IMG/VR virus record: IMGVR_UViG_2585427964_000003
Strand: one strand, 5' to 3'
Length of the DNA: 36,745 nt
DNA from: a virus
Taxonomy: Duplodnaviria; Heunggongvirae; Uroviricota; Caudoviricetes
Positions 6,864 through 36,745 of the stretch are shown here, piece by piece (position 1 is the first letter of the stretch; the number at the start of each line of letters is the position of its first letter). The notes beneath the pieces were generated by a model, which did not search any database, was not told the origin of the DNA, and worked only from the letters and a program-made list of their open reading frames with translations. A program made the translations under genes and the position numbers.

Positions 6864-7556
6864 TTAGTTATCTTTTTGCTTTTCTTTATCCCATTTCTTT
6901 GCAGTGGTCTGATACCACTCTTCACGTGCTCGTTGTTCCTCGGCTCTGTCACTTGAATTATAGTTGTCTGTTTTAATTTTTTTGCTTCCCTGGGAAATCG
7001 GCCTCCAGTCTTCTCTAATCTTTTTCATCTGCTCAGCTATCTGTGTCATTGGACTCCTTGCACCTAAGTAGCTAACCCCCTCGAAAGAAGCCATATCATA
7101 AGAATACTCATTCCGCTCTCTTTCAGTTGAGCCCGGCTGTTTAGACCAGCTAATACTAACAGAATAAACTTGATCTTTAATCTGGTCATACTTACAAAGA
7201 CTGCTGTTGAGGGAATGGCCGTTTTTCAATACGCTAACCTTGCTAAATGGTATACCTTTATTTTTTCTATGTTCTGCATTAACCAGTGGGGGATTAAATC
7301 CGACTTCAATATCATAGGCTGGGGCATTTCCGGTATTAGCAATATTGATATCAAAATAAAAAGCAGCCCAAGAATTTGGTTCAAGAGTCACAACGACATG
7401 AGGTTGAACTGATGCGTCAACCATCCTTTTTGTCTCGTCTGCTAATAGCCTTGTTACTCTCCACAAGAAAAATGTAGCAACTGCTGTTAGCAATGCTGCC
7501 AAAGCGGAGATAAGTGTACTTACTGTGTTTATATGCTCTGCGATAAATTCGATCAT
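6864..7556 (-). CDS. Hypothetical membrane-anchored protein (cargo in Z/fun-equivalent variable locus)
   Basis: 230-aa ORF with AAGGA Shine-Dalgarno 7 nt upstream of ATG; one N-terminal hydrophobic helix (VSTLISALAALLTAVATFFLW), then a soluble domain and a lysine/glutamate-rich C-terminus. Visibly AT-rich compared with flanking P2 genes. No family recognised by eye. Confidence 0.6.
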   Translation of the reverse strand: MIEFIAEHINTVSTLISALAALLTAVATFFLWRVTRLLADETKRMVDASVQPHVVVTLEPNSWAAFYFDINIANTGNAPAYDIEVGFNPPLVNAEHRKNKGIPFSKVSVLKNGHSLNSSLCKYDQIKDQVYSVSISWSKQPGSTERERNEYSYDMASFEGVSYLGARSPMTQIAEQMKKIREDWRPISQGSKKIKTDNYNSSDRAEEQRAREEWYQTTAKKWDKEKQKDN

Positions 7557-8047
7557 GAGTTGTCCTTGGGGGCGTACTAATTGTTTTCAATACTAAAATA
7601 GCGCCGAGCTTGAAAAATTGCACACTTATAGTTCGATTTACCTCAACAGTTAAGGCTTCAACTTCCCCCATGCACCTCACCCAGCCCAAGACTGTATGAG
7701 GTCTGACAAAGAACTTCCTGACACTTGAAAACGAGGCAACGGCTAGGGTTTCTCGTAGGGCAAGGATTGAATACGAAGCCTGTATATTGCTCCGCGAACA
7801 CTGCTGAGGGCAGTTTAAATGTTGGGCGTTTATGTAGCCTTTCACTCACCAGCATGAGTTCAATGTCTGTGAGTTACCGACAACAATATAAAGGGGGTGG
7901 CATCATCATATATCCAAGCTAGAGTCAAATCCTCTAACTGGTTTTATGATCAGTGTCAATTGTTTGATTATTAAACGTTTACGAAGCAGCACGGGAGCCA
8001 TATAACTAATGGGCAGGTATAAGCCTGTATCACGAGGAATCAGTAAA

Positions 8048-8583: not shown

Positions 8584-8776
8584 TTCAGAAACTATCATGA
8601 TTGAAACATTAAATATACTGGGTTAATTCTTTCATCCTTGCTCCCTTGCTATATGTCCTGAAAGCGTCCTTTTTAGCCTTCTGCTCAGTATGTCCGGTAA
8701 TGGCACAGAGCGGACTGTCAGATTAGGCTTTACTCTGTGCCATAGATATGTAAGCTCCCACCAGAGCTCATACAAC

Positions 8777-9304
8777 TTATTGCGGCATTTCCGGCCATTC
8801 AGGATTTGCAGGATCCACACGACTGACCAGAACGCTGTAGCGTTCCCAAGACTCCAGCCGTGTGCGCTCCTCCTCTGTTGCCATGTTCAGTCTGACCGCG
8901 CGCTCCAGCGGCAAAATCACGGATTCAGCATCTGCAAGAAGTCTGGCTTTCCGAATTTCTGCCTGCTGCTGCAATTCCTCTGCCGTATAAATGCGTTTAA
9001 TCACTTTGCCGTCCTTAAACATCCAGTTCCCTGAAATGTCCGCCCGTCGGTTAGCAGTAATATCCGCCACTTCAACAACACTTAATCCATCCGGTCTGAT
9101 AGCTGTCACATCCTTTTCCACATAGCGGATGATATTATCTTTGTCGTACGCTATTTTTATCGTGTCATCAGCAAAATACTTTTGTTGTTCGTACCAGTTC
9201 TTACCATCTTCTGAAAAAAACCAGACAACATCAAAGTCCTTTGTCAATTGATATTGTTCAACCGTTTTTGGATTACCCGCCTTAATATTTTTTAAATGCT
9301 GCAT
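8777..9304 (-). CDS. G: Tail fibre assembly protein gpG
   Basis: 175-aa ORF (P2 G is 175 aa) immediately downstream of H. Confidence 0.85.
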
Positions 9305-9307
9305 AAA

Positions 9308-11554
9308 TTATACCTGCGCCACGTTATACCATGTCCCGTTAATGTATTTCTGCACCGGTCTGTAATATACGCCACCAATGTTATCGGCAGAGTTTGAGCC
9401 GGTATCCTGAACAATAATGCCGGTATATACGCAACCTGACGGAGCCTGATGCGTCCATGTAGTACCATTATTTGCTGGTTTATATGTAGATGCACCGCCC
9501 AGCCGCATGTCTCTCACATAACGTGAATCTGACTCAGCTTTGGTGTATGCACCAACATCTCCCGCTGAGGGTTTTCGTGTTGTGGTATAGAAATCAGACC
9601 AGCCAGATTCAAAACCATAACCATCACGGGCTGACCTGTAAGATATACCGCCATTTTTATAATTCACACGAAACTGTACAGCCGGGCAGCTACCAGCATT
9701 TATATTAAAGTGAAGAATTAATGCAGATGCTCCCCCAATCAGAGCGTTGTATGCGCCACTGTCCCAATTCCATCCAACGGCTGTATCACCATTAACCGTA
9801 TTACCTGTCTGCCGAAGTGCAAATGCACCGACATTTCTGGCATTAAGGGTAATATCTCCAGAACCATCAAAGGCAACACCTGCTATTTTCCTCGGTGTTT
9901 CGAGTTTTGAGGCTGTTGCAGCATTTCCTGAAAGGTTGGAAATAAATGGATGTGAGCAGTAATAACCGCGCCCATTTTTAAAATCCAGAATAGCCTGTGC
10001 GTTCGTGCTTTCTGTAGCGGGATTAGTTGCCCCCCACTTATATGTCGTTTGACCGACGACATAATCCTCTGTCGGAACAATAACCGTTAGCCCTTCCTCT
10101 GCAAGAATTTGCACAGGGAAAGCTCTGGCTTCAACATAAAAAACACTACATACATCATCATCTTTCAGGCTTGTAACAATGGAATGGATTGAACGCTCAT
10201 TGGTCTGATACGTCCAGAAATAACCTGCCGCATATGAACCACGATCAGTCCATCCTCCGGGCATAACCATGCCATTAAACTCGCAGTTATTCATTACATA
10301 ATCGCCGTTATAACAACCAGTGGAAATAACGACGCGGGATGCCATTTCTCCTGAAAGGCTGGCAGCACGGCGAAAGATAACGGGATACCACTTCCCGGCA
10401 ACGACATTTGCAGGGGCTGCAAACGAATACTTTCGCATTCCCTTTTTCTTATCCACTTCACCTTTGCTGTAAACATTAATGTTACTCAGGAAGCGTTCTT
10501 TATCAGGAATATCCGCACCGTTCTGATCTTTCTGAAGACGTTTTTCAGCATTGTCATTGGCAGACTTCACCGCTTTTGGTGTTGCGGCCAGCGTTTCAGA
10601 ATCACTGTTGGTGGCGCTACTTAGCTGGACAAGACCTTTTCGCGCTGTGGTGGCATCCTGTGCAGTGTATTTCCCGTTAGCAAGGTCATACGCTGTCTTA
10701 ACCGCCTTTGGCGTTGCGGCCAGCGTTTCAGAATCGCTGTTGGTGGCACTACTGAGCTGAACAAGGCCTTTTCGCGCGGTGGTGGCGTCCTGCGCGGTGT
10801 ATTTGCCATTAGCAAGGTCATATGCTGTCTTAACTGCCTTCGGCGTTGCTGCGAGCGTCTCAGATTCGCTGTTGATGGCACTACTTAGCTGAACAAGACC
10901 TTTTCGCCCCGTGCTGGCGTCCTGAGCGGTATATTTTCCGTTAGCAAGGTCATACGCTGCCTTAACCGCTTTCGGCGTTGCAGCCAGCGTTTCAGATTCA
11001 CTATTGGTCGCGCTGCTTAACTGAGTAAAACCTTTTGCAGTCAGTGAGGCGTCCGGGTGGCGTCGTGACTGTTCGTGTTCTGCAATTTTGTCATCAACGT
11101 AATCCTGCGTCGCCATCACCGTTGTGGTGTCAATGGTCAGATCCACTGAGGCCACACTGCTGACGATAATGACCATGCGGCAGGTCTGCGAACGTCCTGA
11201 GCCTTCGGCAAGGGCTGGCTTATAACTTTCGGCCATGTTCGCCACGGCAATTAACGTTCCCGCATCATCGTACAGGCCAAGCTCACGCATCCAGAAACCG
11301 CCCACCTCCGGCGGAATAACCAGCTCTGCGATAATATAATTACTGTTTCGTTTGTCCTGGCTGATTTTGTTCAGCGCATGTCGCCAGACTTCGTGGATAA
11401 GCCCGGTCTGTCCGGCATCCGGGACAGGCAATTTACCACCGCCATCCCCGACGGCCATCGTGGTAATGTTGACCTTCCGCCCTCCCGGCGCGGTTGCCGC
11501 TGCCAGCTTTGCTGCACCGGCAGTGGTGATAACGGTTTTGAATTTTGTGCTCAT
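9308..11554 (-). CDS. H: Tail fibre protein gpH
   Basis: 748-aa ORF; N-terminus MSTKFKTVITTAGAAKLAAA... typical of P2-like H; contains tandem phage tail-fibre repeats (SETLAATPKAVK.AYDLANGKYTAQDA). Confidence 0.9.
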   Translation of the reverse strand: MSTKFKTVITTAGAAKLAAATAPGGRKVNITTMAVGDGGGKLPVPDAGQTGLIHEVWRHALNKISQDKRNSNYIIAELVIPPEVGGFWMRELGLYDDAGTLIAVANMAESYKPALAEGSGRSQTCRMVIIVSSVASVDLTIDTTTVMATQDYVDDKIAEHEQSRRHPDASLTAKGFTQLSSATNSESETLAATPKAVKAAYDLANGKYTAQDASTGRKGLVQLSSAINSESETLAATPKAVKTAYDLANGKYTAQDATTARKGLVQLSSATNSDSETLAATPKAVKTAYDLANGKYTAQDATTARKGLVQLSSATNSDSETLAATPKAVKSANDNAEKRLQKDQNGADIPDKERFLSNINVYSKGEVDKKKGMRKYSFAAPANVVAGKWYPVIFRRAASLSGEMASRVVISTGCYNGDYVMNNCEFNGMVMPGGWTDRGSYAAGYFWTYQTNERSIHSIVTSLKDDDVCSVFYVEARAFPVQILAEEGLTVIVPTEDYVVGQTTYKWGATNPATESTNAQAILDFKNGRGYYCSHPFISNLSGNAATASKLETPRKIAGVAFDGSGDITLNARNVGAFALRQTGNTVNGDTAVGWNWDSGAYNALIGGASALILHFNINAGSCPAVQFRVNYKNGGISYRSARDGYGFESGWSDFYTTTRKPSAGDVGAYTKAESDSRYVRDMRLGGASTYKPANNGTTWTHQAPSGCVYTGIIVQDTGSNSADNIGGVYYRPVQKYINGTWYNVAQV
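10560..11035 (-). repeat. Tandem repeat, period 132 bp (44 aa), about 3.6 copies, inside gene H
   Basis: The GCGTTTCAGA motif recurs at 10591, 10723, 10855 and 10987 (spacing exactly 132 bp); the protein shows four near-identical 44-aa units. Confidence 0.85.
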
Positions 11555-18658: not shown

Positions 18659-20200
18659 ATGCCAACAGTTCCAATTTCTATGAGAAAACTTAAAGAAATT
18701 CTTAGGCTTAAATACGGTGTTGGACTCAGCCATCGACAAATTGGTCGTAGTCTTGCAATCTCCCCTTCCGTTGTATCCAGATATGCTAATCGGGCGGCTC
18801 AACTTGGCATAAAGCAGTGGCCCTTACCTACAGGATGGGATGATACAAAACTAAAACATGCGTTCCTTCAGACCCAGGTTAAGATGAAGAAGCACTCTCT
18901 GCCTGACTGGGCTACAGTACACCGGGAACTGCGTAATAAATGCGTGACGCTGCAGCTACTCTGGGAAGAATACTGTGAGCGTAATCCAGGCGGTTTTTAC
19001 AGCTATAACCATTACTGCCGGATGTACCGTGAATGGCTCAAAACCACTTCACCATCAATGCGTCAGGTACATAAAGCTGGCGAAAAACTTTTCGTTGATT
19101 ACTGTGGACCTACCGTTGGCGTTACCGACCCTGAGACCGGAGAAATAAGAACTGCTCAGGTCATCGTAGCTGTTCTCGGGGCATCAAGTTACACATGGGC
19201 AGAGGCCACCTGGTCTCAGCAGCTTGAAGACTGGGTGATGAGTCATGTTCGCTGCTTCCAGTGGTTGGGTGGCGTTCCTGAACTTGTTGTTCCGGACAAT
19301 CTGAAAAGCGCCACATCCAGGGCATGTAAGTATGATCCTGACGTTAACCCTACCTACCAGCAGATGCTTGAGCATTATAATGTCGCAGTTTTGCCTGCGC
19401 GGCCACGTAAACCGAAAGATAAAGCCAAAGCTGAAGTTGGCGTTCAGGTTGTTGAACGCTGGATCATGGCCCGAATCAGGCATGAGATCTTCTACAGCCT
19501 TGCATCGCTTAATCAGCGCATTCGGGAGTTGCTGGAAAGACTGAATAACAAAATAATGCAGAAGTTGGGTTATTCACGTGCAGAACTCTTCATCCAGCTT
19601 GATAAACCCGCACTGAAGCCTCTTCCTGAAGCCAGTTACAGTTACACCCTGGTGAAGAAAGTCAGAGTTCATGCCGATTACCACGTGGAAATCGACAAAC
19701 ATTACTACTCGGTTCCATGTTCGCTGTTAGGCCAGCAACTGGAAGCATGGATCTCCGGAGAACTGGTAAGACTCTTCAATCAGGGGCAGGAGGTTGCTGT
19801 GCACCCGCGCAAGCGTACTTATGGCTACAGTACCCGCAACGAGCACATGCCTGAAGCTCATCGACAGCATGCCACCTGGACGCCAGAGCGTCTTCTGGAA
19901 TGGGCGGGGCACATAGGCAGTGAAACTCATAGTTATGTGCTTCATATACTGAACTCTCGTCCACATCCGGAACAAAGCTATCGCTTCTGCCTTGGACTCC
20001 TGAACCTTCATAAAAAATACAGTAAAGCCAGACTTAATGCAGCATGTGCAAGAGCTCTGAAAACAAAGGTATGGCGTCTGTCAGGTATTAAATCGATCCT
20101 GGAAAAAGGTCTGGATAAACAACCTGTTCAGGATCCAAAACCAGATCTGTTATCCACGATGGAACACGAAAACGTACGCGGCAGTGAGTATTACCACTGA
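18659..20200 (+). CDS. istA: IS21-family transposase IstA
   Basis: 513-aa ORF with N-terminal helix-turn-helix (LSHRQIGRSLAISPSVVSRY) and a DDE-type integrase core; AAGGA Shine-Dalgarno before the ATG. Confidence 0.85.
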   Translation: MPTVPISMRKLKEILRLKYGVGLSHRQIGRSLAISPSVVSRYANRAAQLGIKQWPLPTGWDDTKLKHAFLQTQVKMKKHSLPDWATVHRELRNKCVTLQLLWEEYCERNPGGFYSYNHYCRMYREWLKTTSPSMRQVHKAGEKLFVDYCGPTVGVTDPETGEIRTAQVIVAVLGASSYTWAEATWSQQLEDWVMSHVRCFQWLGGVPELVVPDNLKSATSRACKYDPDVNPTYQQMLEHYNVAVLPARPRKPKDKAKAEVGVQVVERWIMARIRHEIFYSLASLNQRIRELLERLNNKIMQKLGYSRAELFIQLDKPALKPLPEASYSYTLVKKVRVHADYHVEIDKHYYSVPCSLLGQQLEAWISGELVRLFNQGQEVAVHPRKRTYGYSTRNEHMPEAHRQHATWTPERLLEWAGHIGSETHSYVLHILNSRPHPEQSYRFCLGLLNLHKKYSKARLNAACARALKTKVWRLSGIKSILEKGLDKQPVQDPKPDLLSTMEHENVRGSEYYH

Positions 20201-20211
20201 TACGGGATCCA

Positions 20212-20961
20212 ATGATGAATCATCTTTACGAACAACTGACCGCACTTAAACTCACCGGCTTCCGTGATGCGCTTAAAAAGCAACTTGCTCAGCCGGGCAC
20301 ATACCAGGAGCTGGGCTTCGAAGAACGCCTGTCATTACTGACAGCAGAAGAACTAACCTGCCGTGAAAACAGGAAGGCAGAGCGTCTGATCAAACATGCA
20401 CGGTTCAGACTTAATGCTGAGTTATCAAAGCTGGATTATCGTAACAATAGAGGGCTGGACAGGGCCCTCATCCGTTCACTCAGTCAGGGAAACTGGTTAA
20501 CCCTGAAACAAAATATTTTACTGACCGGGGCCACCGGCAGCGGTAAAACGTTCCTGGCATGTGCACTTGGTCATAATGCCTGCCGACAGGGATACAAGGT
20601 CTACTATTATCGCCTTAAAGCGCTGATGGAACAGTGCTATCAGGGGCATGCTGATGGAAGATACAGCAAACTTTTGACCAGGCTGAATAATAGCGATCTG
20701 CTGCTTCTGGATGACTGGGGGCTGGAACCTCTCTCATCAGAACAGCGTAGCGACCTGCTGGAAATAGTGGATCTGATGTACCAACGAGGCTCAATCATCG
20801 TAGTGAGCCAGTTGCCGGTGGAAAACTGGTACAAAATGATCGGAGACTCCACACATGCGGATGCCATCCTAGATCGACTGGTTCATGGCAGTATCAAGAT
20901 CGAACTTAAAGGAGAATCAATGCGGAAAATACAATCTCCGTTGACCGAAGGAGATCAGTGA
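20212..20961 (+). CDS. istB: IS21-family ATP-binding helper protein IstB
   Basis: 249-aa ORF with Walker A (GATGSGKT) and Walker B (LLLLDDWG), the typical IstB AAA+ architecture, immediately downstream of istA. Confidence 0.88.
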   Translation: MMNHLYEQLTALKLTGFRDALKKQLAQPGTYQELGFEERLSLLTAEELTCRENRKAERLIKHARFRLNAELSKLDYRNNRGLDRALIRSLSQGNWLTLKQNILLTGATGSGKTFLACALGHNACRQGYKVYYYRLKALMEQCYQGHADGRYSKLLTRLNNSDLLLLDDWGLEPLSSEQRSDLLEIVDLMYQRGSIIVVSQLPVENWYKMIGDSTHADAILDRLVHGSIKIELKGESMRKIQSPLTEGDQ

Positions 20962-23701: not shown

Positions 23702-23874
23702 TGTCAGGAGTCCTGAATAGTGATTAGAGGAGTCACATGTCGGCATCAGTTTCCCGACGATGCGCATCCTCCGCCATCAGTCCCGGATGGCTTATCACTG
23801 ACACAACAGCACCTTAGCGAATCGCAGGGCGCGACTCAGTAGCCTTGCCGTGTATTCATCACGGCGAGGTATTC

Positions 23875-25647
23875 ATGACCATCACCACAGACACCACTCT
23901 TTTACACGACCCGCGTCGTCAGGCGGCGCTGCTGTACTGGCAGGGGTTTTCCGTGCCGCAGATTGCCGCCATGTTGCAGATGAAACGCCCGACGGTGCAG
24001 AGCTGGAAACAGCGCGACGGCTGGGACAGCGTTGCCCCCATCAGCCGTGTCGAAATGAGTCTGGAAGCGCGGCTGACCCAGCTCATCATCAAACCGCAGA
24101 AAACCGGCGGTGACTTCAAGGAAATTGACCTGCTGGGACGCCAGATTGAACGACTGGCACGGGTAAACCGTTACAGTCAGACCGGCAACGAGGCAGACCT
24201 TAATCCGAACGTCGCTAACCGCAACAAAGGCGGGCGGCGCAAACCGAAAAAGAATTTTTTCAGTGACGAGGCCATCGAAAAGCTGGAGCAGATTTTCTTT
24301 GAGCAGTCTTTCGACTATCAGTTGCACTGGTATCGCGCCGGGCTTGAGCACCGCATCCGCGATATCCTGAAATCCCGCCAGATTGGCGCGACGTTTTATT
24401 TTTCCCGCGAGGCGCTGCTGCGCGCCCTGAAAACCGGCCATAACCAGATTTTTCTGTCGGCCAGTAAAACGCAGGCGTATGTGTTCCGCGAATACATCAT
24501 CGCCTTTGCCCGTCTGGTTGACGTTGACCTGACCGGTGACCCGATTGTCCTGGGCAATAACGGTGCAAAACTGATTTTTCTCGGCACCAACTCCAACACC
24601 GCACAGAGCCATAACGGCGACCTGTACGTCGATGAGATTTTCTGGATCCCGAATTTTCAGGTACTGCGTAAGGTGGCATCAGGTATGGCCTCACAGAGTC
24701 ACCTGCGCTCGACCTATTTCTCCACCCCGTCCACGCTGGCGCACGACGCCTACCCGTTCTGGTCGGGTGAACTGTTCAACCGGGGACGCGCCAGCGCCGC
24801 CGAACGCGTGGAAATCGACGTCAGTCATAACGCCCTTGCCAGCGGGCTTCTCTGTGCGGACGGCCAGTGGCGGCAGATTGTCACCATTGAGGACGCCCTG
24901 AAAGGCGGCTGCACGCTGTTCGACATTGAGCAGCTCAAACGCGAAAACAGCGCCGACGATTTTAAAAACCTGTTCATGTGTGAATTTGTTGACGACAAGG
25001 CGTCGGTGTTCCCGTTCGAGGAGCTGCAACGCTGTATGGTCGACACGCTGGAAGAATGGGAAGACTATGCGCCGTTTGCCGCCAATCCGTTCGGCTCACG
25101 TCCGGTATGGATTGGTTACGACCCGTCACACCGTGGCGACAGCGCCGGATGCGTGGTACTGGCACCGCCGGTGGTGGCCGGTGGCAAATTCAGAATACTT
25201 GAGCGTCACCAGTGGAAAGGCATGGACTTTGCCACCCAGGCTGAATCCATCCGCAAACTCACCGAAAAATATAACGTCGAATACATCGGTATTGATGCCA
25301 CCGGCCTCGGTGTCGGCGTGTTCCAGCTCGTGCGCTCGTTCTATCCCGCCGCGCGCGATATCCGCTACACGCCGGAAATGAAAACCGCAATGGTGCTCAA
25401 GGCAAAAGACGTTATCCGCCGTGGCTGTCTGGAATATGACGTCAGCGCCACCGACATCACCAGCTCGTTTATGGCTATCCGCAAGACCATGACCAGCAGC
25501 GGACGCAGCGCCACCTATGAGGCCAGTCGCAGCGAGGAAGCCAGCCACGCCGACCTCGCCTGGGCGACCATGCACGCCCTGTTAAATGAGCCACTCACCG
25601 CCGGTATCAGCACCCCGCTGACATCCACCATTCTGGAGTTTTACTGA
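23875..25647 (+). CDS. P: Terminase large (ATPase) subunit gpP
   Basis: ATG at 23875 with a GAGG Shine-Dalgarno gives 590 aa (MTITTDTTLLHD...) as in P2 P; divergent from O. Confidence 0.9.
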   Translation: MTITTDTTLLHDPRRQAALLYWQGFSVPQIAAMLQMKRPTVQSWKQRDGWDSVAPISRVEMSLEARLTQLIIKPQKTGGDFKEIDLLGRQIERLARVNRYSQTGNEADLNPNVANRNKGGRRKPKKNFFSDEAIEKLEQIFFEQSFDYQLHWYRAGLEHRIRDILKSRQIGATFYFSREALLRALKTGHNQIFLSASKTQAYVFREYIIAFARLVDVDLTGDPIVLGNNGAKLIFLGTNSNTAQSHNGDLYVDEIFWIPNFQVLRKVASGMASQSHLRSTYFSTPSTLAHDAYPFWSGELFNRGRASAAERVEIDVSHNALASGLLCADGQWRQIVTIEDALKGGCTLFDIEQLKRENSADDFKNLFMCEFVDDKASVFPFEELQRCMVDTLEEWEDYAPFAANPFGSRPVWIGYDPSHRGDSAGCVVLAPPVVAGGKFRILERHQWKGMDFATQAESIRKLTEKYNVEYIGIDATGLGVGVFQLVRSFYPAARDIRYTPEMKTAMVLKAKDVIRRGCLEYDVSATDITSSFMAIRKTMTSSGRSATYEASRSEEASHADLAWATMHALLNEPLTAGISTPLTSTILEFY

Positions 25648-26681
25648 TGAGCAAGAAAAAAGGGAAAACACCGCAACCTGCGGCAAAAACAATCACCGCC
25701 AGCGCTCCGAAAATGGAGGCATTCACCTTTGGTGAGCCGGTGCCGGTACTCGACCGCCGTGACATTCTGGATTACGTCGAGTGCATCAGTAACGGCAGAT
25801 GGTATGAGCCACCGGTCAGCTTTACCGGTCTGGCAAAAAGCCTGCGTGCTGCCGTGCATCACAGCTCACCGATTTACGTCAAACGCAATATTCTGGCTTC
25901 AACGTTTATCCCGCACCCGTGGCTGTCCCAGCAGGATTTCAGCCGCTTTGTGCTGGATTTTCTGGTGTTCGGTAATGCGTTTCTGGAAAAGCGTTACAGC
26001 ACCACCGGTAAGGTCATCAGACTGGAAACCTCACCGGCAAAATATACCCGCCGTGGCGTGGAAGAGGATGTTTACTGGTGGGTGCCGTCCTTCAACGAGC
26101 CGACAGCCTTCGCGCCCGGCTCCGTGTTTCACCTGCTGGAGCCGGATATTAATCAGGAGCTGTACGGCCTGCCGGAATATCTCAGCGCCCTTAACTCTGC
26201 CTGGCTGAATGAGTCGGCCACGCTGTTCCGCCGCAAGTACTACGAAAACGGCGCACATGCCGGATACATCATTTACGTCACTGATGCCGTGCAGGATCGC
26301 AATGATATCGAAATGCTCCGCGAAAACATGGTGAAGTCGAAAGGCCGCAACAACTTTAAAAATCTGTTTCTCTATGCCCCACAGGGGAAAGCCGACGGCA
26401 TTAAAATTATCCCGCTCAGTGAAGTGGCGACGAAGGATGATTTTTTTAATATCAAAAAAGCCAGCGCCGCAGACCTGCTGGACGCGCACCGCATCCCCTT
26501 TCAGTTGATGGGCGGCAAGCCGGAGAACGTCGGGTCGCTGGGTGATATTGAGAAAGTGGCAAAGGTCTTTGTCCGCAATGAGCTTATCCCGTTACAGGAC
26601 AGGATCCGCGAGATAAACGGCTGGCTCGGTCAGGAGGTCATCCGATTTAAAAACTACTCACTGGACACTGACAACGGCTGA
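25647..26681 (+). CDS. Q: Portal protein gpQ
   Basis: 344-aa ORF, size and position match P2 Q; start overlaps the P stop (TGATG). Confidence 0.92.
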   Translation: MSKKKGKTPQPAAKTITASAPKMEAFTFGEPVPVLDRRDILDYVECISNGRWYEPPVSFTGLAKSLRAAVHHSSPIYVKRNILASTFIPHPWLSQQDFSRFVLDFLVFGNAFLEKRYSTTGKVIRLETSPAKYTRRGVEEDVYWWVPSFNEPTAFAPGSVFHLLEPDINQELYGLPEYLSALNSAWLNESATLFRRKYYENGAHAGYIIYVTDAVQDRNDIEMLRENMVKSKGRNNFKNLFLYAPQGKADGIKIIPLSEVATKDDFFNIKKASAADLLDAHRIPFQLMGGKPENVGSLGDIEKVAKVFVRNELIPLQDRIREINGWLGQEVIRFKNYSLDTDNG

Positions 26682-26869: not shown

Positions 26870-27016
26870 CGCCCGCTTCATGCAGGGCTTTAAATGCAGT
26901 GCAGCAGTAATGGTTAGAATGCGCCAGCACTGATGTTAGATACCAGAACTGGCATTTAAAAATGAATGCAAATAAATGCACCAAACTAATTACTTACTGA
27001 CAAAAAATAAGTAAAA

Positions 27017-27901
27017 TCAGGCGCAAGTTGGCATTGAGACCCCTTTCAGGGTATTAGGAATAATTATTTCAGGAGAAAAAATCATCACTTCCTCTCCAGA
27101 TTTTTTGAGATGTGCTGTATATTGCAATGAATACTCAACTTGCGGAAATCCATTATAAATATCTTTAATTTCCTTAGCGTTATCATAAGAAACAAGCCAA
27201 TTTGGGAAATTAATTTCTGTGAGTTTCTTCATAACCAATACATGGTCATCATGCTCATAAAAATTCCTGTAAAGCCCTTGCCCTTTAATATAGTAAGGAG
27301 GATCCAAATACAAAAGAATTTTATTTTTATCCACCTTTCCCATATTATCCATAAAATTCAAGGCATCAAGAAAATCCAAAGCATCCAGATTAGTTACTAC
27401 TATTCTTTGATTATAATTTGCTATCTTCTCAATTCTTGAAATTAAATCCGCCCTGTTAAAGCGAACATCCATTTTCCATTTTCCATTTTGTGATTTCCCG
27501 CCTATAACCCCCGCCTTGAGAATACCTGAACGATTTGTTCTATTTAAGAAAAACGCAGCAAAGCCAACCTCAAGCTTAGTAAACTCAGAAGGATTCGAAA
27601 TAACATAGCGATGAAAAGACCATTCATCCATATCTATCTTTGCTCGGCTAATAAGTCGGCAAAGCTCATCAGTATCACTAACAACAGATGACCAAAAAGA
27701 ATAAACAGCAAAATCTGCATCATTTATATAGATTTTACGGACATACTCTTCCAATAATAATTCTAAAGCCACCCCTGCACCACCAGCGTAAGGTTCTGCA
27801 TATGCTCCATCATTCAACGAGTTTTTTTCAATAACATCTTTTAAAAAGTAAGATAACTTACCTTTCCCGCCGGGGTATCTTAATGGAGTATAAAATTTCA
27901 T
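27017..27901 (-). CDS. Dam-class (D12 family) N6-adenine DNA methyltransferase
   Basis: 294-aa ORF with GAGGG Shine-Dalgarno; motifs YPGGKGKL near the N-terminus, PYAGGAG (SAM-binding FxGxG-like) and LDPPYY (catalytic DPPY). Strongly AT-rich; lies in the tin/old-equivalent position. Confidence 0.8.
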   Translation of the reverse strand: MKFYTPLRYPGGKGKLSYFLKDVIEKNSLNDGAYAEPYAGGAGVALELLLEEYVRKIYINDADFAVYSFWSSVVSDTDELCRLISRAKIDMDEWSFHRYVISNPSEFTKLEVGFAAFFLNRTNRSGILKAGVIGGKSQNGKWKMDVRFNRADLISRIEKIANYNQRIVVTNLDALDFLDALNFMDNMGKVDKNKILLYLDPPYYIKGQGLYRNFYEHDDHVLVMKKLTEINFPNWLVSYDNAKEIKDIYNGFPQVEYSLQYTAHLKKSGEEVMIFSPEIIIPNTLKGVSMPTCA

Positions 27902-27938
27902 AAATCCCTCTCATTCCTGATTTTGTAGTTTATCAGTT

Positions 27939-27958
27939 TCTGGACATCCATGTCCAGA
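27939..27958. promoter_or_regulatory. Perfect palindrome TCTGGACA-TCCA-TGTCCAGA upstream of the methyltransferase gene (candidate operator)
   Basis: 8-bp perfect inverted repeat with 4-nt spacer in the 69-bp gap between the two cargo genes, 38-57 nt upstream of the methyltransferase ATG. Confidence 0.4.
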
Positions 27959-27970
27959 TGTAGACAAATC

Positions 27971-29476
27971 TCACTCACTCCAAATAAGGCTTAATAACAA
28001 CTCAAAGTTATCCCACTCAGTGTTGACAGCCTCTTTTGAGGGAATTAAGTGTGGGTTATGTACATACTGCTGCAATGAACCATCATGTTTAGTTATTTGG
28101 CTCGAGAAAGTTATTACAGCCGTACATTGACTCCCCGTCATCTTTTTATTTTCCCGAAGGAAATTAGCACACATTTTAACCTTATCATGAAGCCCTGGAG
28201 TTCTATGTGGTTCCTTAAATTGTAACTTGTTTTCTTCAACAAAAGTGCTTACAGAGAGATCTATAAATATTCTCAACAATATTGAGATAGCATTAGGGGT
28301 GTTATCAAATGTCAGATGCGACTTAAGCTCATTAAATATTCTAGAGCATTTCTTATGCCCTCTAAAATTAAATTTCACATAAGATGGCACCAACACATTA
28401 CGATCTACTTTAGGAGGAGTTTTTCCCTTGTTTTTATTCTGTTCCGTGCCCGAAACTTTAGATTTACTCTCTTCTGTGCCTACATGTCTAGAATAATCAT
28501 CTTCCTGTTTATCCACACCTGTATTCTTTAAGGCATCACCTTCTGAAAGACCTACTTTCTTTACACTCACAGATGCATCATTTTTGTCAATAGAATCATG
28601 TTTTTTCTCTGTAAGAAAAGATTTAGGCTCCAGTAAACTCCACGGCTTATCTAAAAGAGATTCTGAAGGTTTTATTTTTTGTTCAATAATAAATGTAACC
28701 CTGTCATCTTGGCTACGAATCCTATTAACAGTAAAACAAGCCTTACCTTTATCATCCTCTTCAATCATTACATCTAAAATATTTTTTAATTGTGCACAAA
28801 AACGTTCATAAGGCTGATATGAGTATAGAACTCCATTAATGCTTTTTAAATTAAAATAATCCCTCACCTTTAAATCACCAAAAAGACGCGTGATGTTTGT
28901 GATTTTTAAAAGTCTTTTTTTAGCAATTATCTCTTTATATAAATCAGTATTGAACTCTATAAATGTAAGTATTTGATTACCAAATGACTGCTTACCCATC
29001 CTAGCCAGATGTCGTGCTTTTTCTGTTGCAGTCCATTCAACTCTTCCAACTCCAGCATTTTGACCAGTATGCTTTAAATTGACCCAATGCTCATATTCAT
29101 CATCGTCAAAAAGAACGCAGTTATCTATAACATTAATATCTTTAAGCTGAGTAATCTTAAGTTTTTCAAAAGCTTTCCGTGCTTTTTCTGTTGGTGCAAG
29201 TCTAGGAGAGTGTAAAAGTTTAAGGGCTGTAACTCGACGATTACCTTCAGCAACGACGAAAAAGCCAGATTCCTCTTCACTAGGATAAACTAATATGTTT
29301 TCAGACGGATCTAAACCTTTCGAAGCAATATCTTTAGCCAAGCGATAAATGCGGTCGTACTGCAAGTCAAGCATCTTGGCAATAGCATCACGCTGATTTT
29401 CTGCTGACGTCGGGAAACGAGGGTTATCAACATCCAAAAGTAACTTATTGATATTCATTGATTTTAGTTGATTCAT
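27971..29476 (-). CDS. ParB/Srx-fold nuclease-domain protein with long C-terminal extension (cargo gene)
   Basis: N-terminal region LLLDVDNPRF ... ILVYPSEEESGFFVVAEGNRRVTALKLL carries the ParB N-terminal domain signature (GxRR). A Lys/Glu/Ser-rich low-complexity linker is followed by a roughly 150-aa C-terminal domain of unrecognised type. Start chosen at ATG 29474-29476 (AGAGGA Shine-Dalgarno 8 nt upstream, 501 aa); the ORF track extends to 29545 (524 aa). AT-rich. Confidence 0.7.
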   Translation of the reverse strand: MNQLKSMNINKLLLDVDNPRFPTSAENQRDAIAKMLDLQYDRIYRLAKDIASKGLDPSENILVYPSEEESGFFVVAEGNRRVTALKLLHSPRLAPTEKARKAFEKLKITQLKDINVIDNCVLFDDDEYEHWVNLKHTGQNAGVGRVEWTATEKARHLARMGKQSFGNQILTFIEFNTDLYKEIIAKKRLLKITNITRLFGDLKVRDYFNLKSINGVLYSYQPYERFCAQLKNILDVMIEEDDKGKACFTVNRIRSQDDRVTFIIEQKIKPSESLLDKPWSLLEPKSFLTEKKHDSIDKNDASVSVKKVGLSEGDALKNTGVDKQEDDYSRHVGTEESKSKVSGTEQNKNKGKTPPKVDRNVLVPSYVKFNFRGHKKCSRIFNELKSHLTFDNTPNAISILLRIFIDLSVSTFVEENKLQFKEPHRTPGLHDKVKMCANFLRENKKMTGSQCTAVITFSSQITKHDGSLQQYVHNPHLIPSKEAVNTEWDNFELLLSLIWSE

Positions 29477-29832
29477 CAACATATCCTCTGTTGAATCTTT
29501 ATGATAAAAATTAATTATTTTTATCATAAATGATAGCGTAAACATAGTCTTATGAACGACATCAGCCCTGAAGCTTCAAAACTATCATTTACGTTTGCGA
29601 GGCACCATCTATCACATTGATTTATAATAAGTATCTTTATCTTCACTGCATTGCTCTCAAAAAATCACATAGATGGAAATTCCCCGTTGACACACTCCCA
29701 AGTGATGCAGATACATTTCAAGTGCTTCATACACATGATAACGGCTATCCCCCTAAATTCTGTGCGTTTCTTTTCCCTCCAGCACAAGGTTGAAATATCT
29801 TGCGTGCAGCTTTACTTTGTGAATCTTTGTCA

Positions 29833-32124
29833 TTATATCCGCGCCATTACTGTTGAGAATCCCGGCCACTCATCAGCGACCGGATACGTGAATTTTTTCC
29901 CGTCATAATTTACGGTCGCGCCACGCGCCAGCACCTCAAGCTCCCATCGTTGCGGCCTGATACCGTTCTGAGCGAGGTCAACGCGGATACGGGTAATTTG
30001 CAATCGTTCCGACCGGGTCAGTCTGGCCGACGGTGCTATTTCATGCGGTTTTAACGGGCTTCCGGCTCTTTGCTGACGATTTGGTGTTCTCAGTCCGTGT
30101 TTTAATGCGCCCCTGAGCGCCCTCACGACCTCCGGGTCATTCCATTCGATAACACCGTCATCAACCAGATTAAGCACTGCTGCGACGTGCTCAGAAGGTG
30201 TGGGAGCCGGTAACGAAGTATCACCACTGGTGAGCTTTCCACAGTTATTGACAGGACTCCGAGGCGCGGCGATGCCGCTTTTTAAAGTCAAAGGCTCAAC
30301 GACCGGAACTTTCAGCACAATGCGCCAGTCCGTCGTTCTGGTGATATGAATATGACGCGCGCCGAGATGCGGCGCGTAAATGCCGACCACTCTCTCGACT
30401 TCTTCCTCATACTCGTTAACGTCATCTGACGGGCTACGGGCGACCCTGACAGTCTGACAATCGCGCGGGACATTTGCCCCACCCTGCGCGCTGATATACA
30501 ACGCAAAATCACCACTGTCTGCGGCGGCGCGTGCAGCCTCGACGCGTTCGTCAAACTCATCAGCAATGCTGACGCCGCGAGGCAATTTGCGTAGCTCACG
30601 GTAAGCCCCCATTGTCGGCAGGCCAACCGTTTTAAATTGCGGGATGCGCCACGTTGACGCCCATGCGGTAACAGCCGCGGCAGTATCTTTAAGCGGCTTA
30701 CCGGTATCGTTATCGAGCTGACCATCCAGTGCATAGCCGTCGATATTTTTTGAAATGTATTTCGCGATATATCCCGCAGCACCGCCCCGGTTAAGGTGTT
30801 TTGCCTGAAAACGGTTTCGCGCAGCGCCTCTTTCGTCACCATCCTCTTTGAGCGCATAGCGACGCATGATTTCGATAATCTGGTTACGCTGGCGTGGATT
30901 ACAAAAAAGCATCATATGCCAGTGCGGCGTTCCGTCGTGGTGTGGCTCGACGACACGCAAACCGTAGACCTGTAAATCATTATCCTTGAATGCCGTGCGC
31001 ATCAGGCTCCAGATACGGCAGAGATAACGCTGCGCATCCTTTGGATTAAATGCCTCATCGTTCCAGCCGTGATTAAGCTGAACGGTTTTACTTTCGCCTT
31101 TTCCGACCTGACGTGTCGGGTGATACTTTGACGGCGCGGTCAGCGTGATAAACATCCCCACATCACCCTCTGCGGCGGCGTAACGCTCAATACCGGCAAT
31201 GGTGTTCATCAGCTCCATCCGGCGAATTTCAGGATTAGAAATACTGCCCATCACCTTACTGATAAGGTCGATGCGCTCGCCGGTTTCCCTGTTTTCAAGG
31301 TCACACGATTTAAGAAATTCCAGATTTGCCTGGCGGCGCGCACGCACATCACGAATGGCATGTTTACTGGCATAAGGAGAACGGTCTTTATTGACCTCCC
31401 CGACAGCTATCAGTAAAGCTTCATGCCAGCGCATACGCTGGCCTTTAAGCTGATGAGTCCACCACTCATCGTTAAACAGGCGGGCAATGGCAGAATATGC
31501 CTGCCTCGTGGTTATCTGTCCTTTACGGTATTTTTTCCAGTAGAGCGGGGAAATATTGAAAGCACGTGCAGCGCCAGCAACATGACCATACAGATGATCC
31601 TGCGCCTCATCCGTAAACAGTGATTCTTTTTCGCCATGCGCATCCACCCAGGCATCGCAGAGTTCCTCATACATCATGAAAAGCTGCGATGAAATACGGG
31701 CGGCAAACTTTTTCAGCTCCTTGTCATTCATCCCCGGCAGACGCGCATAGTGGTCACGCTCAGCCAGAAACAGCAACGACGCGTCGGTGTTCATTTCATG
31801 GCGCTGATTCACGCGCTCAATGCGCGGCCATAAACGACGCTGAAAAGTGGATGTGAGGAAATAAAACCCGTGTACCGGGCTTTTATTGCGCCGGATGTAG
31901 TCATAGCGTGAAGTAAACAGCGAGCGCAAAAAGTAAGGCAGGCGGTTAATCGTGGATAAAACCCCTTGCACCTGACGCATCTCGTCACGTGTAAGGGGTC
32001 TTTCGCGCCCGACGGCCTCGCGTGGCGCGTTCCATGCATAAGCACCGGTAAACGTCTTACCGGTGCCTGCAGCAAATGCTGACGTAGTTACGCAGGTGTA
32101 TTGCTCCTGGAAAGAATGACTCAT
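29833..32124 (-). CDS. A: Replication initiation endonuclease gpA (rolling-circle)
   Basis: 763-aa ORF MSHSFQEQYTCVTTSAFAAGTGKTFTGAYAWNAP...; size and position match P2 A (about 761 aa from memory). Confidence 0.92.
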   Translation of the reverse strand: MSHSFQEQYTCVTTSAFAAGTGKTFTGAYAWNAPREAVGRERPLTRDEMRQVQGVLSTINRLPYFLRSLFTSRYDYIRRNKSPVHGFYFLTSTFQRRLWPRIERVNQRHEMNTDASLLFLAERDHYARLPGMNDKELKKFAARISSQLFMMYEELCDAWVDAHGEKESLFTDEAQDHLYGHVAGAARAFNISPLYWKKYRKGQITTRQAYSAIARLFNDEWWTHQLKGQRMRWHEALLIAVGEVNKDRSPYASKHAIRDVRARRQANLEFLKSCDLENRETGERIDLISKVMGSISNPEIRRMELMNTIAGIERYAAAEGDVGMFITLTAPSKYHPTRQVGKGESKTVQLNHGWNDEAFNPKDAQRYLCRIWSLMRTAFKDNDLQVYGLRVVEPHHDGTPHWHMMLFCNPRQRNQIIEIMRRYALKEDGDERGAARNRFQAKHLNRGGAAGYIAKYISKNIDGYALDGQLDNDTGKPLKDTAAAVTAWASTWRIPQFKTVGLPTMGAYRELRKLPRGVSIADEFDERVEAARAAADSGDFALYISAQGGANVPRDCQTVRVARSPSDDVNEYEEEVERVVGIYAPHLGARHIHITRTTDWRIVLKVPVVEPLTLKSGIAAPRSPVNNCGKLTSGDTSLPAPTPSEHVAAVLNLVDDGVIEWNDPEVVRALRGALKHGLRTPNRQQRAGSPLKPHEIAPSARLTRSERLQITRIRVDLAQNGIRPQRWELEVLARGATVNYDGKKFTYPVADEWPGFSTVMARI

Positions 32125-33128
32125 TCACATACACCGGCATAGACACTACTGCAAACGGCTTTATCATTCGCCGAAGCCAGTAAATCAAACTGAGTACCCC
32201 CACGCGTTGTCATTGTCCAGTCATGGTAGGTTTCTATTCCGTATGCCTCGACTGTTACAATCTCAATACGACGTTCTGCGCGTAGCGGATCATGTGTGGA
32301 TGGGAAAAAAGTGGAATTTCCCCGACGGGAGCACGACGCAACCAGTCGTTCCCATTCAGCAACCCGTTTTATTTCCTCCGGCCACCGGCGAAAAATTTCT
32401 GCCAGTTCAGATTTACGGACATGAATACATGGCATACAACCAACACGGCCACACCCCTGCTGATATAACGGATTTGGCTTAATGTCATGTCTTCTGGCTA
32501 TTGCAAATACATCTTCATGCTTCCAGTGCAAAATCGGGCGATATACATGCAATCCGGGGGTGTTGTCTGCATCCTCTTCCCAGACAGGTAAAGCAGCGCG
32601 TGATGGCGATTCCTGAGCACGCACTCCCTGCCAGCTAATCACTTCCTCAAATTCATTGAGTAAAGGCAATATTACCTGAGAACGCACGGGCTCATGTTTC
32701 AGTTCAAATGTGCAAAATCTGGCTTTGGTTGATGGGAAACGCCCCTTCCACAGACACAAATCAAGAAACGGGATACCCGTTGGTTTGAGAATTTCCAGCG
32801 CACAACTGATGCGCTGGTGCGCTTCTTCTTCCGACATTCCACAATCGTTAACCAACAAATCAGGCCATTTGGTCTGGATAAACTTGCGCTTTGATTCAAT
32901 CCGGCAGGAAAAATCAGCTCTGACTCTTTTAATTGGGCCAAGCCGTTTTTCCAGATAATCCAGATATTTCATTGTCTGTGGATGTTCATGTCCCGTATCA
33001 GCAAAAACCGGCAATATGGGTACATTTTCTTCAATAGCGACAAGCCACTGAGCAAGGCTGTCCTTTCCACCTGAAACAAAAATAACATTGATGGTATTTT
33101 CAGTATGGCAACGAGCATCAGTAATCAT
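32121..33128 (-). CDS. PAPS reductase / DndC-like PP-loop ATP pyrophosphatase family protein
   Basis: 335-aa ORF with N-terminal PP-loop VIFVSGGKDS and a C-terminal cysteine cluster (GCGRVGCMPC). Start overlaps the orf83-like stop and its stop overlaps the A start (ATGA at both junctions). Confidence 0.75.
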   Translation of the reverse strand: MITDARCHTENTINVIFVSGGKDSLAQWLVAIEENVPILPVFADTGHEHPQTMKYLDYLEKRLGPIKRVRADFSCRIESKRKFIQTKWPDLLVNDCGMSEEEAHQRISCALEILKPTGIPFLDLCLWKGRFPSTKARFCTFELKHEPVRSQVILPLLNEFEEVISWQGVRAQESPSRAALPVWEEDADNTPGLHVYRPILHWKHEDVFAIARRHDIKPNPLYQQGCGRVGCMPCIHVRKSELAEIFRRWPEEIKRVAEWERLVASCSRRGNSTFFPSTHDPLRAERRIEIVTVEAYGIETYHDWTMTTRGGTQFDLLASANDKAVCSSVYAGVCE

Positions 33129-35749: not shown

Positions 35750-36745
35750 ATGTCTATTAAAAAGCTCGATGATGGTCGTTATGAAGTGGACGTCAGACCG
35801 CAGGGTGCAGATGGAAAACGTATCAGGCGGAAATTTAAAACTAAAGGTGAAGCTCAAGCATTCGAACGTCATGTACTGGTTAACTACCACAACAAAGAGT
35901 GGTTGGAGAAACCAGCCGACCGCCGAACTCTTACAGAGTTGTTAGGCAGATGGTGGATATATCACGGAAAATCACATGAGCGTGGAGATATTGAACGGGG
36001 GCGTTTAACGACAATAATCGCCAAATTTGCAGAAATGGGAGTGTCCAGAGCTGACCAGCTAACAAAGAAAACGATAACTGATTATCGCGTTGTAATGATG
36101 AACGATGGTCTAAAACCAGCCAGCGTAAATCGACATCTGGCAATAATGAGTGGGATGTTCACCAAGTTAATTGACGCCGGTGAATACCACTCTCACAACC
36201 CGTTCCGTGAGATTAAACGGTTACGTGAAGCTGTTACGGAAATGGCTTTTTTGTCCAGTGAAGAGATTACGCGGCTGTTATCCATGCTCGATGGTGATGA
36301 ATTAAATGCAACTCTGGTCTGCCTTTCTACTGGTGGACGCTGGAGTGAAGTGTCTAATTTAAAAGCTGAACACATCATTAACCAGATGGTTACGTTTATG
36401 AAAACTAAAAACGGAAAACGCAGGACAATTCCCGTTTCGCAGGACCTGATTAAACGGATCAAGACCAAAAATTCAGGCAGGCTTTTTAATGCCAGTTACT
36501 ACAAAGTGCGTAACGCTCTCAGGGAAGTAAAACCCGATTTACCTGACGGACAAGCAGTACATGTTTTGAGGCATACATTTGCCACACATTTTATAATGAA
36601 TGGAGGTAACATAATCACATTGCAGCGCATCCTGGGTCATTCTAACATTCAGCAAACTATGACCTACGCACACTTTGCACCGGATTTCTTACAAGATGCT
36701 GTGACTCTTAACCCGGTGTCAGGAATGTCCATAATGCGTCCATAA
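35750..36745 (+). CDS. int: Tyrosine integrase
   Basis: 331-aa ORF with GGAGGG Shine-Dalgarno; C-terminal catalytic motifs (R...HVLRHTFATHF...LGHSNIQQTMTYAHF) typical of phage tyrosine recombinases; the stop codon is the last 3 nt of the window. Confidence 0.92.
   Translation: MSIKKLDDGRYEVDVRPQGADGKRIRRKFKTKGEAQAFERHVLVNYHNKEWLEKPADRRTLTELLGRWWIYHGKSHERGDIERGRLTTIIAKFAEMGVSRADQLTKKTITDYRVVMMNDGLKPASVNRHLAIMSGMFTKLIDAGEYHSHNPFREIKRLREAVTEMAFLSSEEITRLLSMLDGDELNATLVCLSTGGRWSEVSNLKAEHIINQMVTFMKTKNGKRRTIPVSQDLIKRIKTKNSGRLFNASYYKVRNALREVKPDLPDGQAVHVLRHTFATHFIMNGGNIITLQRILGHSNIQQTMTYAHFAPDFLQDAVTLNPVSGMSIMRP

Follow-up and report, generated by a model that had tools for sequence, protein, structure and literature searches.

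A PD-lambda-5 operon in a P2-like prophage combines a ParB-like protein bearing a C-terminal HEPN fold with a predicted adenine methyltransferase

What does a ParB-like protein do in a P2-like prophage? The gene that raises this question (gene A, 27971..29476, minus strand, 501 aa) lies in a window of 36,745 nucleotides, the whole stretch of DNA analysed here, which corresponds to the virus record IMGVR_UViG_2585427964_000003. Together with a second gene (gene B, see below) it occupies a low-GC cargo island (26900..29700; GC 0.30–0.41 vs. ~0.52–0.58 in the flanks) that sits at the P2 hotspot flanked by the portal gene (25647–26681) and the gpA-like replication gene (29833–32124), with an integrase at 35750–36745. 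The open reading frame is intact between 27971 and 29545 (minus strand) and would code for 524 aa from its first ATG or 501 aa from the ATG at 29476. An earlier note on this DNA had considered the start ambiguous, only the ATG at 29476 having a well-spaced Shine-Dalgarno, and this start is now supported. The motif AGAGGA (29484..29489, minus strand) is found 7 nt before this ATG and only 1 nt from the one at 29482, while the sequence contains no Shine-Dalgarno for those at 29545 and 29527. The N-termini of all the aligned homologues (48 of 48) coincide with 29476, and RefSeq/PGAP gives an identical 1506-nt CDS, with the same limits (stop codon at 27971–27973).

The identity of the locus came from comparison with the PADLOC profiles. 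Gene A matched PD-Lambda-5_A (PDLC03998) with an E value of 5.4e-168, residues 1–500 covering positions 1–465 of the 466 in the profile, and gene B (27017..27901, minus strand) matched PD-Lambda-5_B (PDLC04018) with an E value of 1.4e-121. The two genes are almost certainly PD-lambda-5, a two-gene anti-phage operon, here carried by a P2-like prophage. The validated proteins are those of E. coli ECOR7, RCQ13837.1 and RCQ13838.1 (Vassallo et al., 2022, Nat Microbiol; PMC9519451), tagged as “ParB/HEPN, methyltransferase” in Table S1 of that work and belonging to a system of 2461 nt (PMC9519451); our locus agrees with the published length and with the HHsearch residue ranges. Gene B shares 292 of 294 residues with the member of its cluster that bears the ECOR7 PD-lambda-5B accession, RCQ13838.1. 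Gene A shares 500 of 501 residues with the gene upstream of the RCQ13838.1-type B allele, the reference being in this case the neighbor of that ECOR7-type allele, located via the allele itself. The neighborhood of the ECOR7-type allele has the same gpA/portal/terminase setting as the window, and the ECOR7 system has the same operon order and length and occupies the same P2 hotspot, with gpA on one side and the portal gene on the other. Gene A differs by V308A in the linker and gene B by two substitutions, none of them functionally notable. PD-lambda-5 is thus already known, and a near-identical copy of a published and validated system, with the same domain labels, has little weight as a discovery. 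[quoted passage not shown]

The gene A protein can be divided into four parts, a ParB/Srx module, a helical middle, a disordered linker and an all-helical C-terminal domain. The unusual multi-part architecture behind a ParB-type N-terminus, first proposed from the sequence, holds both in the AlphaFold2 model and in the conservation among 124 homologues. In the full-length model (mean pLDDT 78.7, pTM 0.43) the mutual arrangement of the domains is undefined. The N-terminal module (~aa 1–150; 29027..29476, minus strand) has the ParB/Srx alpha/beta fold on structural comparison, and its top structural matches were KorB and chromosomal ParB. By sequence, Pfam ParBc (PF02195) did not match gene A at E values up to 1, nor any of 48 homologues at E values up to 0.1, and was reached by profile–profile HHsearch only (96.4%); the Pfam and NCBIfam scans of gene A returned nothing but noise (DUF3364, E value 0.17; RepB, E value 0.021). 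The module contains a Box I-like N18-P-R20-F, a conserved loop W131..H136-T-G-x-N-x-G-x-G..W148 and the motif E77-G78-N79-R80-R81 (codons at 29234..29248, minus strand), counterpart of the ParB Box II (GERR) that binds nucleotide phosphates. This last motif, with its GxRR arginine pair, was kept in 99–100% of the 124 homologues. The nucleotides taken by ParB-CTPase folds are CTP, ATP or GTP. The ParB domain had been described as ~200 aa followed by a linker; the ParB/Srx core covers only ~125–150 aa, and the description was imprecise because another conserved folded domain (~150–290) precedes the linker.

Is gene A then a conventional ParB/KorB-type protein, devoted to partition or transcription silencing in the prophage? 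The resemblance to the canonical ParB/KorB CTPase clamps is real as regards the N-terminal fold, the Box II-like arginine pair and the Box I-like NPR, but several observations speak against this role, which we consider extremely unlikely. P2-like prophages integrate and need no partition system. The ParA-type Walker A motif KGGxGK[ST] is absent from every frame of the window, in accordance with the earlier remark that no parA partner lies nearby, and the sole P-loop in a real ORF of the window is that of the IS21 IstB. The search for a parS-like or operator element brought up one palindrome (see below) and no clear parS site. Across loci gene A is accompanied by a methylase and not by ParA, and its defense activity has been validated (PMC9519451). 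The C-terminal dimerization domain of ParB is missing as well, and the structure has a HEPN fold in its place. The view of gene A as a multi-domain effector, not a partition protein, is accordingly upheld by its assignment as component A of PD-lambda-5, the lack of a ParA Walker A, the HEPN C-terminus and the methylase found in 73 of 80 loci.

Residues 1–290 are folded in the AlphaFold2 model. The middle domain (~aa 151–290; 28607..29026, minus strand) is family-specific and mostly helical, with a pLDDT of 82–93 over most of its length and a mean identity of 35% among homologues; R197 and V250 are invariant and R259 is 98% conserved. No separate significant structural match was obtained for it, and it is at most a candidate counterpart of the ParB HTH domain. 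The linker that follows (aa 291–354, 64 residues; 28415..28606, minus strand) includes most of the K/E/S/D-rich stretch pointed out previously (aa 298–360), and its disordered, polar and variable character is shown by a pLDDT below 50, by a composition rich in K/S/N/G/D/E (hydrophobic residues 19% vs. 40.5% in the remaining protein) and by an identity of 6% vs. 35–50% in the folded parts among the 124 homologues. When only homologues with an overall identity of 60% or more are considered, the linker retained 17% identity vs. 74–88% in the folded parts. Its length varies as well, with 44 to 107 residues separating R259 from R359.

The last 147 residues (aa 355–501; 27974..28414, minus strand) form six helices, and structural comparison of the AlphaFold2 model showed a four-helix up-down bundle like that of solved HEPN domains. 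This C-terminal domain of ~150 aa had been left as unrecognized, which is correct for the standard sequence libraries: it has no Pfam or NCBIfam family, profile searches of PDB sequences with the full-length and C-terminal alignments gave no meaningful match, and the Pfam scan of 48 homologues produced scattered weak matches to DUF5677, DUF4145 and Csm6-HEPN. By structure, the fold is recognizable as HEPN. The catalytic motif of these domains is Rx4-6H, whose location is given in PMC3710099. At the corresponding site, the end of the penultimate helix, we found Y471-V-H473-N474 (codons at 28055..28066, minus strand), with H473 conserved in 99% of the sequences, Y471 in 90% and N474 in 88%. There is no arginine at positions −4 to −6 of H473 (end of helix 3); position −5 is L, F or I, never R, and −4 is N, Q or H. 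On the other hand, helix 2 carries R402-x3-D406 (28259..28273, minus strand), in which the arginine is 100% conserved and position 406, one turn past it, is D or E in 124 of 124 sequences. R402 probably stands in for the missing motif arginine. A variant motif of the same sort has been described in the Parep1/8 HEPN family (PMC3710099). As judged from the alignments, the retention of the HEPN histidine while the canonical arginine has become Leu/Phe appears to be a new feature of the gene A family. Altogether, the conserved candidate catalytic or binding residues of gene A are N18, R20, E77–R81, H136, G138, G142, R359, E383, R402, D/E406 and H473.

Gene B (294 aa) belongs to the D12 class of N6-adenine DNA methyltransferases (Pfam PF02086, E value 3.6e-16) and is predicted to be active from this match and its PYAGGAG and DPPY motifs. 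The use of an mrr-deletion host for cloning PD-lambda-5 (PMC9519451) suggests also that the methylase modifies DNA in vivo. It is located downstream of gene A on the same strand, after a gap of 69 nt, and is its functional partner. Among 80 loci, drawn from many phyla, 73 have a B homologue directly downstream of A on the same strand, and this conservation of the A-then-B pairing across phyla, as far as gene order can tell, is also new. Four of the seven loci without an adjoining B are contig ends; the other three (L009, L030 and L055) have A without B, indicating that A deprived of the methylase is not lethal in every case, or does not depend on it in every case. Across loci B was more conserved (39–71% identity) than A (26–68%), a pattern typical of a methylase with respect to its restriction partner. 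No third gene was conserved among the 80 loci. An OLD-like AAA_15/AAA_21 ATPase was considered for this place and discarded, being present in only 12 of 80 and at varying positions.

The strict linkage of the methylase to A and its better conservation are what would be expected if the operon were a compact restriction-modification system acting on DNA, in which the ParB/Srx domain cut or nicked unmethylated DNA and the HEPN domain was non-catalytic (involved in dimerization or regulation) or a back-up. Some members of the ParB/Srx superfamily do act as DNA nickases, ATP serving as the negative switch (cited in PMC12839542), the broad protection fits a generic sensing of non-self DNA, and the absence of the canonical HEPN arginine means that the domain could be non-catalytic. 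Yet the polar residue set of the HEPN domain is fully conserved, including the histidine at the catalytic position, which would be unexpected in a passive domain. No restriction endonuclease fold (PD-(D/E)xK, HNH, GIY-YIG, PLD) was recognized by sequence or structure. Besides, classical restriction-modification yields modified escapers whereas no escape plaques are listed for this clone, and the phages hit hardest were the T-even, with hypermodified DNA. We regard cleavage at the DNA level as unlikely. Hypermodified T-even DNA withstands most restriction enzymes.

Another way to account for the two genes is an abortive infection or toxin–antitoxin-like module, in which A would be a toxic RNase restrained either by B itself or through B-dependent methylation at its own promoter or operator, and freed by some phage-induced event instead of by a reading of the methylation state of the incoming DNA. 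HEPN toxins are frequent in both types of systems and the wording “RM+Abi” points in the same direction (PMC9519451). There is also a perfect palindrome of 33 bp (14+5+14; 29498..29530) upstream of gene A that overlaps a promoter-like −10 element and is a possible operator. However, the palindrome is not kept at distant loci, and the promoter scan was at chance level (12 sites vs. 10.1 expected). A specific phage trigger is hard to reconcile with protection against nine of 10 unrelated phages, and the three orphan A genes without B also speak against this arrangement. It seems to us quite improbable.

The best explanation overall, to which we give slightly better than even credence, is that the locus is PD-lambda-5 and that it works through a methylation-sensing HEPN effector. 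The mechanism itself, a methylase that marks self and a ParB-fold switch that senses unmarked DNA and activates a tethered HEPN RNase, is plausible but falls somewhat short of even. Gene B would mark the host chromosome by N6-adenine methylation, and gene A would combine sensing and effector functions in a single polypeptide. The ParB/Srx module of A, with its invariant EGNRR, would act as an NTP-dependent switch engaging DNA and discriminating the unmethylated foreign molecule from methylated self; no fold has been assigned to the middle domain, which leaves the DNA-reading element hypothetical. Engagement would bring together two copies of A, as NTP does with ParB N-domains, and the flexible tethers of 15–80 residues would allow the two C-terminal HEPN domains to pair into an active RNase, whose cleavage of RNA would bring the infection to a halt. 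The HEPN site is non-canonical, with His473 kept, the motif arginine replaced by Leu/Phe and R402 of helix 2 as the probable substitute. Taken in full, i.e., an RM-like system with an RNase as restriction arm, a ParB-fold NTP switch reading the missing N6-adenine mark, dimerization through the tether and the HEPN arginine supplied from helix 2, this scheme is only tentative.

There is precedent for a ParB-like NTPase domain that gates a fused nuclease after reading DNA modification. SspE, GmrSD and BrxU (DUF262 ParB-like NTPase plus DUF1524 HNH) also join a ParB/Srx nucleotide-binding N-terminus to a C-terminal nuclease effector, and SspE cooperates with a separate DNA-modification module and senses the state of the modification via its NTPase domain. 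However, their P-motif is DGQQR instead of EGNRR and their effector is HNH instead of the RNase-type HEPN fold, and PD-lambda-5 A has a long disordered tether between sensor and effector; the modification is phosphorothioation in the case of SspE and single-enzyme N6-adenine methylation in PD-lambda-5. Neither DUF262 nor DUF1524 gave a Pfam match in gene A. ParB–HEPN fusions and ParB/HEPN/DNA-methylase operons were catalogued computationally by Anantharaman et al. (2013) (PMC3710099). The Saro_3948-type fusion and the MAE_28990 family have the same domain combination and association with a methylase (PMC3710099) but, comparing by their published description, they keep Rx4-6H (“yes” or “mostly active”) whereas the gene A family lacks the motif arginine.

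The literature searched contains no biochemical or genetic tests of whether gene A binds NTP, senses methylation or acts as an RNase, and no mechanism for PD-lambda-5 has been published in the searchable literature, so that the remaining value of the locus is mechanistic. The residues R80/R81, the H136-T-G-x-N-x-G-x-G loop, R359, E383, R402, D406 and H473, together with linker length, provide a map for mutagenesis. Should the HEPN domain prove to be the effector, the operon would be a clean minimal model of epigenetic discrimination between self and non-self tied to RNA-level immunity. A-then-B is an ancient and widespread two-gene module: the searches gave 6032 clusters at 50% identity (E value up to 0.001) and relatives in 349 species genomes of many phyla, and the best 150 representative matches listed were all full-length relatives.

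The stretch is a P2-like prophage, in which the terminase (23845-25647), the portal gene (25647-26681), a gpA-type replication nickase (29833-32124) and an integrase (35750-36745) can be located. Between the portal gene and gpA, across roughly 26900-29700, the GC content falls from about 0.55 to 0.30-0.41. This low-GC cargo island contains two co-directional genes, the ParB-like gene (27971-29476, minus strand; gene A, product protein A) and, 69 nt downstream on the same strand, gene B (27017-27901), which codes for a 294-aa D12-class N6-adenine DNA methyltransferase (Pfam PF02086, 3.6e-16) with its methyltransferase motifs intact. The portal-gpA interval is the P2 defence hotspot of Vassallo et al. 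(2022). PADLOC identified gene A over its full length as PD-Lambda-5_A (E 5.4e-168) and the methylase as PD-Lambda-5_B (E 1.4e-121), i.e., the two components of a validated system that came from E. coli ECOR7 (RCQ13837.1 / RCQ13838.1) and was labelled "ParB/HEPN, methyltransferase" in Table S1 of its description (PMC9519451). The window methylase and the cluster member with accession RCQ13838.1 were identical at 292/294 residues. On the contigs with the allele carrying this accession, the upstream 501-aa gene was 500/501 identical to protein A (the single difference, V308A, falls in the linker) and the gpA, portal and terminase flanks were the same. The window locus also agrees with the published system in its length (2461 nt) and in the HHsearch residue ranges (PMC9519451), and 22 out of 5426 complete E. 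coli genomes carry the region at ≥99% identity. The locus is an already known system with domain labels published in 2022, and ParB-HEPN fusions and ParB/HEPN/DNA-methylase operons were catalogued in 2013 (Anantharaman et al., PMC3710099). What we add is the structural confirmation of the HEPN domain, its rewired motif, a map of the conserved residues, the properties of the linker and the breadth of the two-gene module.

The gene A ORF (27971..29545, minus strand) is intact and has four in-frame candidate ATG starts. As the earlier note had pointed out, only ATG 29476 has a well-spaced Shine-Dalgarno, the element AGAGGA (29489-29484) being located 7 nt 5' of it; the same element is 1 nt from ATG 29482, and the ATGs at 29545 and 29527 have none. 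The N-termini of the aligned homologues (48/48) coincide with ATG 29476, and the same 1506-nt CDS appears in the RefSeq/PGAP annotation of identical E. coli loci, under the names "hypothetical protein" or "ParB N-terminal domain-containing protein". Because the Shine-Dalgarno, the homologue N-termini and the RefSeq CDS all point to this codon, the product has 501 aa. A perfect palindrome (29498-29530; 14+5+14, TTTATGATAAAAAT-AATTA-ATTTTTATCATAAA) lies 22-54 nt 5' of the start, overlaps a promoter-like -10 element and includes ATG 29527, one of the candidate starts; it was not kept upstream of distant gene A homologues.

In the AlphaFold2 model of the full-length protein (mean pLDDT 78.7), residues 1-290 are folded, 291-354 have pLDDT <50 and 355-501 are all helical. 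The N-terminal module is of the ParB/Srx fold with an intact phosphate-binding motif, and its top Foldseek matches in the PDB were KorB and a C-terminally truncated Caulobacter ParB (probability 0.99-1.0). Pfam ParBc matched none of 48 family members; the published HHsearch probability for the ParBc region is 96.4% (aa 6-89; PMC9519451). Over an alignment of 124 sequences (26-100% identity), the Box I-like N18/R20, the Box II-like E77-G-N-R-R81 and the loop W131..H136-T-G-x-N140-x-G142-x-G144..W148 were 94-100% conserved. The middle domain (about aa 150-290) is conserved, mostly helical and confidently modelled, with R197 and V250 invariant and R259 at 98%. The charged low-complexity linker described from the sequence corresponds to the 64 residues of low pLDDT (19% hydrophobic vs 40.5% elsewhere). 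Its identity is 6% across homologues, and among close homologues 17% vs 74-88% in the folded parts. R259 and R359 are separated by either 44-62 or 74-107 residues, a bimodal distribution. The linker is a genuine tether, disordered and selected only for polarity and flexibility.

For the C-terminal domain the published sequence hints are weak (DUF4145 35.6%, RiboL-PSP 8%; PMC9519451). Modelled alone it reached pLDDT 91.7 and pTM 0.87, and this model makes the assignment to the HEPN fold firm. The earlier note had left the domain unrecognised, which holds for sequence comparison but not for structure, and at the place where a canonical ParB would have its dimerisation domain there is a HEPN fold instead. 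HEPN domains carry the Rx4-6H motif where helix 3 ends (PMC3710099). The corresponding His473 of protein A (99% conserved) is at the end of the penultimate helix, and position -4 is N/Q/H, in keeping with the polar residue that normally follows the Arg, but position -5 was never Arg in the 124-sequence alignment, L/F/I being found instead. Judged from the alignment, the HEPN site is non-canonical. The conserved polar cluster of the domain includes an invariant R402-x3-[D/E]406 in helix 2, together with R359 (100%), E383 (98%), K432 (93%) and D489 (91%). Protein A resembles in this the Parep1/8 HEPN family, which also retains the His and has lost the motif Arg, and where other conserved basic residues may compensate (Anantharaman et al., PMC3710099). 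By analogy, we infer that R402 could substitute for the lost Arg.

A search of 1.84 billion cluster representatives with the protein A profile gave 6032 relatives at E ≤0.001 and 1783 at E ≤1e-30, and the best 150 all had the full architecture. When one genome per species was scanned with a pattern, relatives turned up in 349 species, from phyla including Proteobacteria, Bacillota, Bacteroidota, Actinomycetota, Chloroflexota and Patescibacteria, plus one Micrarchaeota MAG. The Micrarchaeota case (locus L062, 5986-7326) is a full-length homologue at 28% identity on a contig that ends before any methylase position could show, and is explained either by rare presence in archaea or by faulty binning of the contig. 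The two genes are genomically coupled: in 73 of the 80 homologue loci fetched a D12 methylase homologue is directly downstream on the same strand, with an intergenic distance between -20 and +92 nt for every pair except one. Of the other seven loci, four stop at a contig edge and three are true orphans. One orphan, in Pseudoalteromonas rubra (locus L009, 2411-7476), lies inside a Tn7-like element and looks like transposon cargo, since TnsD- and TnsE-like genes precede it. The methylase ranges from 39 to 71% identity vs 26-68% for A; a methylase better conserved than its restriction partner is the usual pattern. No third conserved gene appeared in the 80 loci. In 12 of them (among these 8765-10453 of locus L002, 4307-5986 of L004 and 8445-10133 of L011) the pair has as a neighbour, either 5' of A or 3' of B, a gene for an ABC-type ATPase of about 560 aa that is OLD-like (AAA_15/AAA_21). 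The window lacks this gene, which might be a further defence gene residing at the same site or an optional third component of the system. Integrases were present in 11/80 loci.

A role of protein A in partition is excluded because there is no ParA in the window, the C-terminus has a HEPN fold and the linkage to the methylase extends across phyla. With the PD-lambda-5 match, these results bear out the earlier reading of an effector. PD-lambda-5 protects most strongly against T-even phages, and Table S1 gives no escape plaques for it (PMC9519451); later papers restate the description and add no mechanism. The cloning host was an mrr-deletion strain (PMC9519451), and therefore we infer that B methylates DNA in vivo. 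An RNA-level or abortive effector would explain the broad protection, the strong T-even activity and the lack of escape plaques better than classical DNA restriction would, although none of the three is decisive. In the most likely mechanism, B would mark the DNA of the host as self, A would read that mark through its N-terminal module, an NTP-dependent DNA sensor, and the tethered HEPN domains would be switched on by induced pairing and cleave RNA. In the main rival, the ParB-fold domain itself would nick unmethylated DNA and the HEPN domain would be regulatory. Several precedents support the first of these: in SspE, GmrSD and BrxU a ParB-like DUF262 NTPase domain reads DNA modification and then gates the nuclease fused to it, ParB-CTPase folds bind CTP, ATP or GTP, ParB N-domains self-engage upon nucleotide binding, and HEPN RNases work as dimers.

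Other features of the prophage were also observed. An IS21-family insertion sequence (18659-20961), with an IstA-like transposase (18659-20200; rve and Mu-transpos_C_2) and IstB (20212-20961; PF01695, 2e-67), is located within the late-gene region beside the small terminase gene, and the prophage carrying it may be defective. At the second P2 cargo hotspot position (Z/fun; 6864-7845, minus strand) there are two ORFs of 230 aa (6864-7556) and 142 aa (7417-7845), neither with Pfam or PADLOC matches, that may be uncharacterised cargo. A PAPS-reductase-like gene of 335 aa (32121-33128), with weak PADLOC matches to SspD, DndC and BrxP and a match to phrog_424, abuts the start of the gpA-like gene. 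Between gpA and gene A, the RefSeq annotation of identical loci shows what is left of a DUF3850-domain gene, with a frameshift (about 29752-29833); it was probably part of cargo that occupied the hotspot before. In prophages, ParB-CTPase folds are frequently fused to DUF3850.
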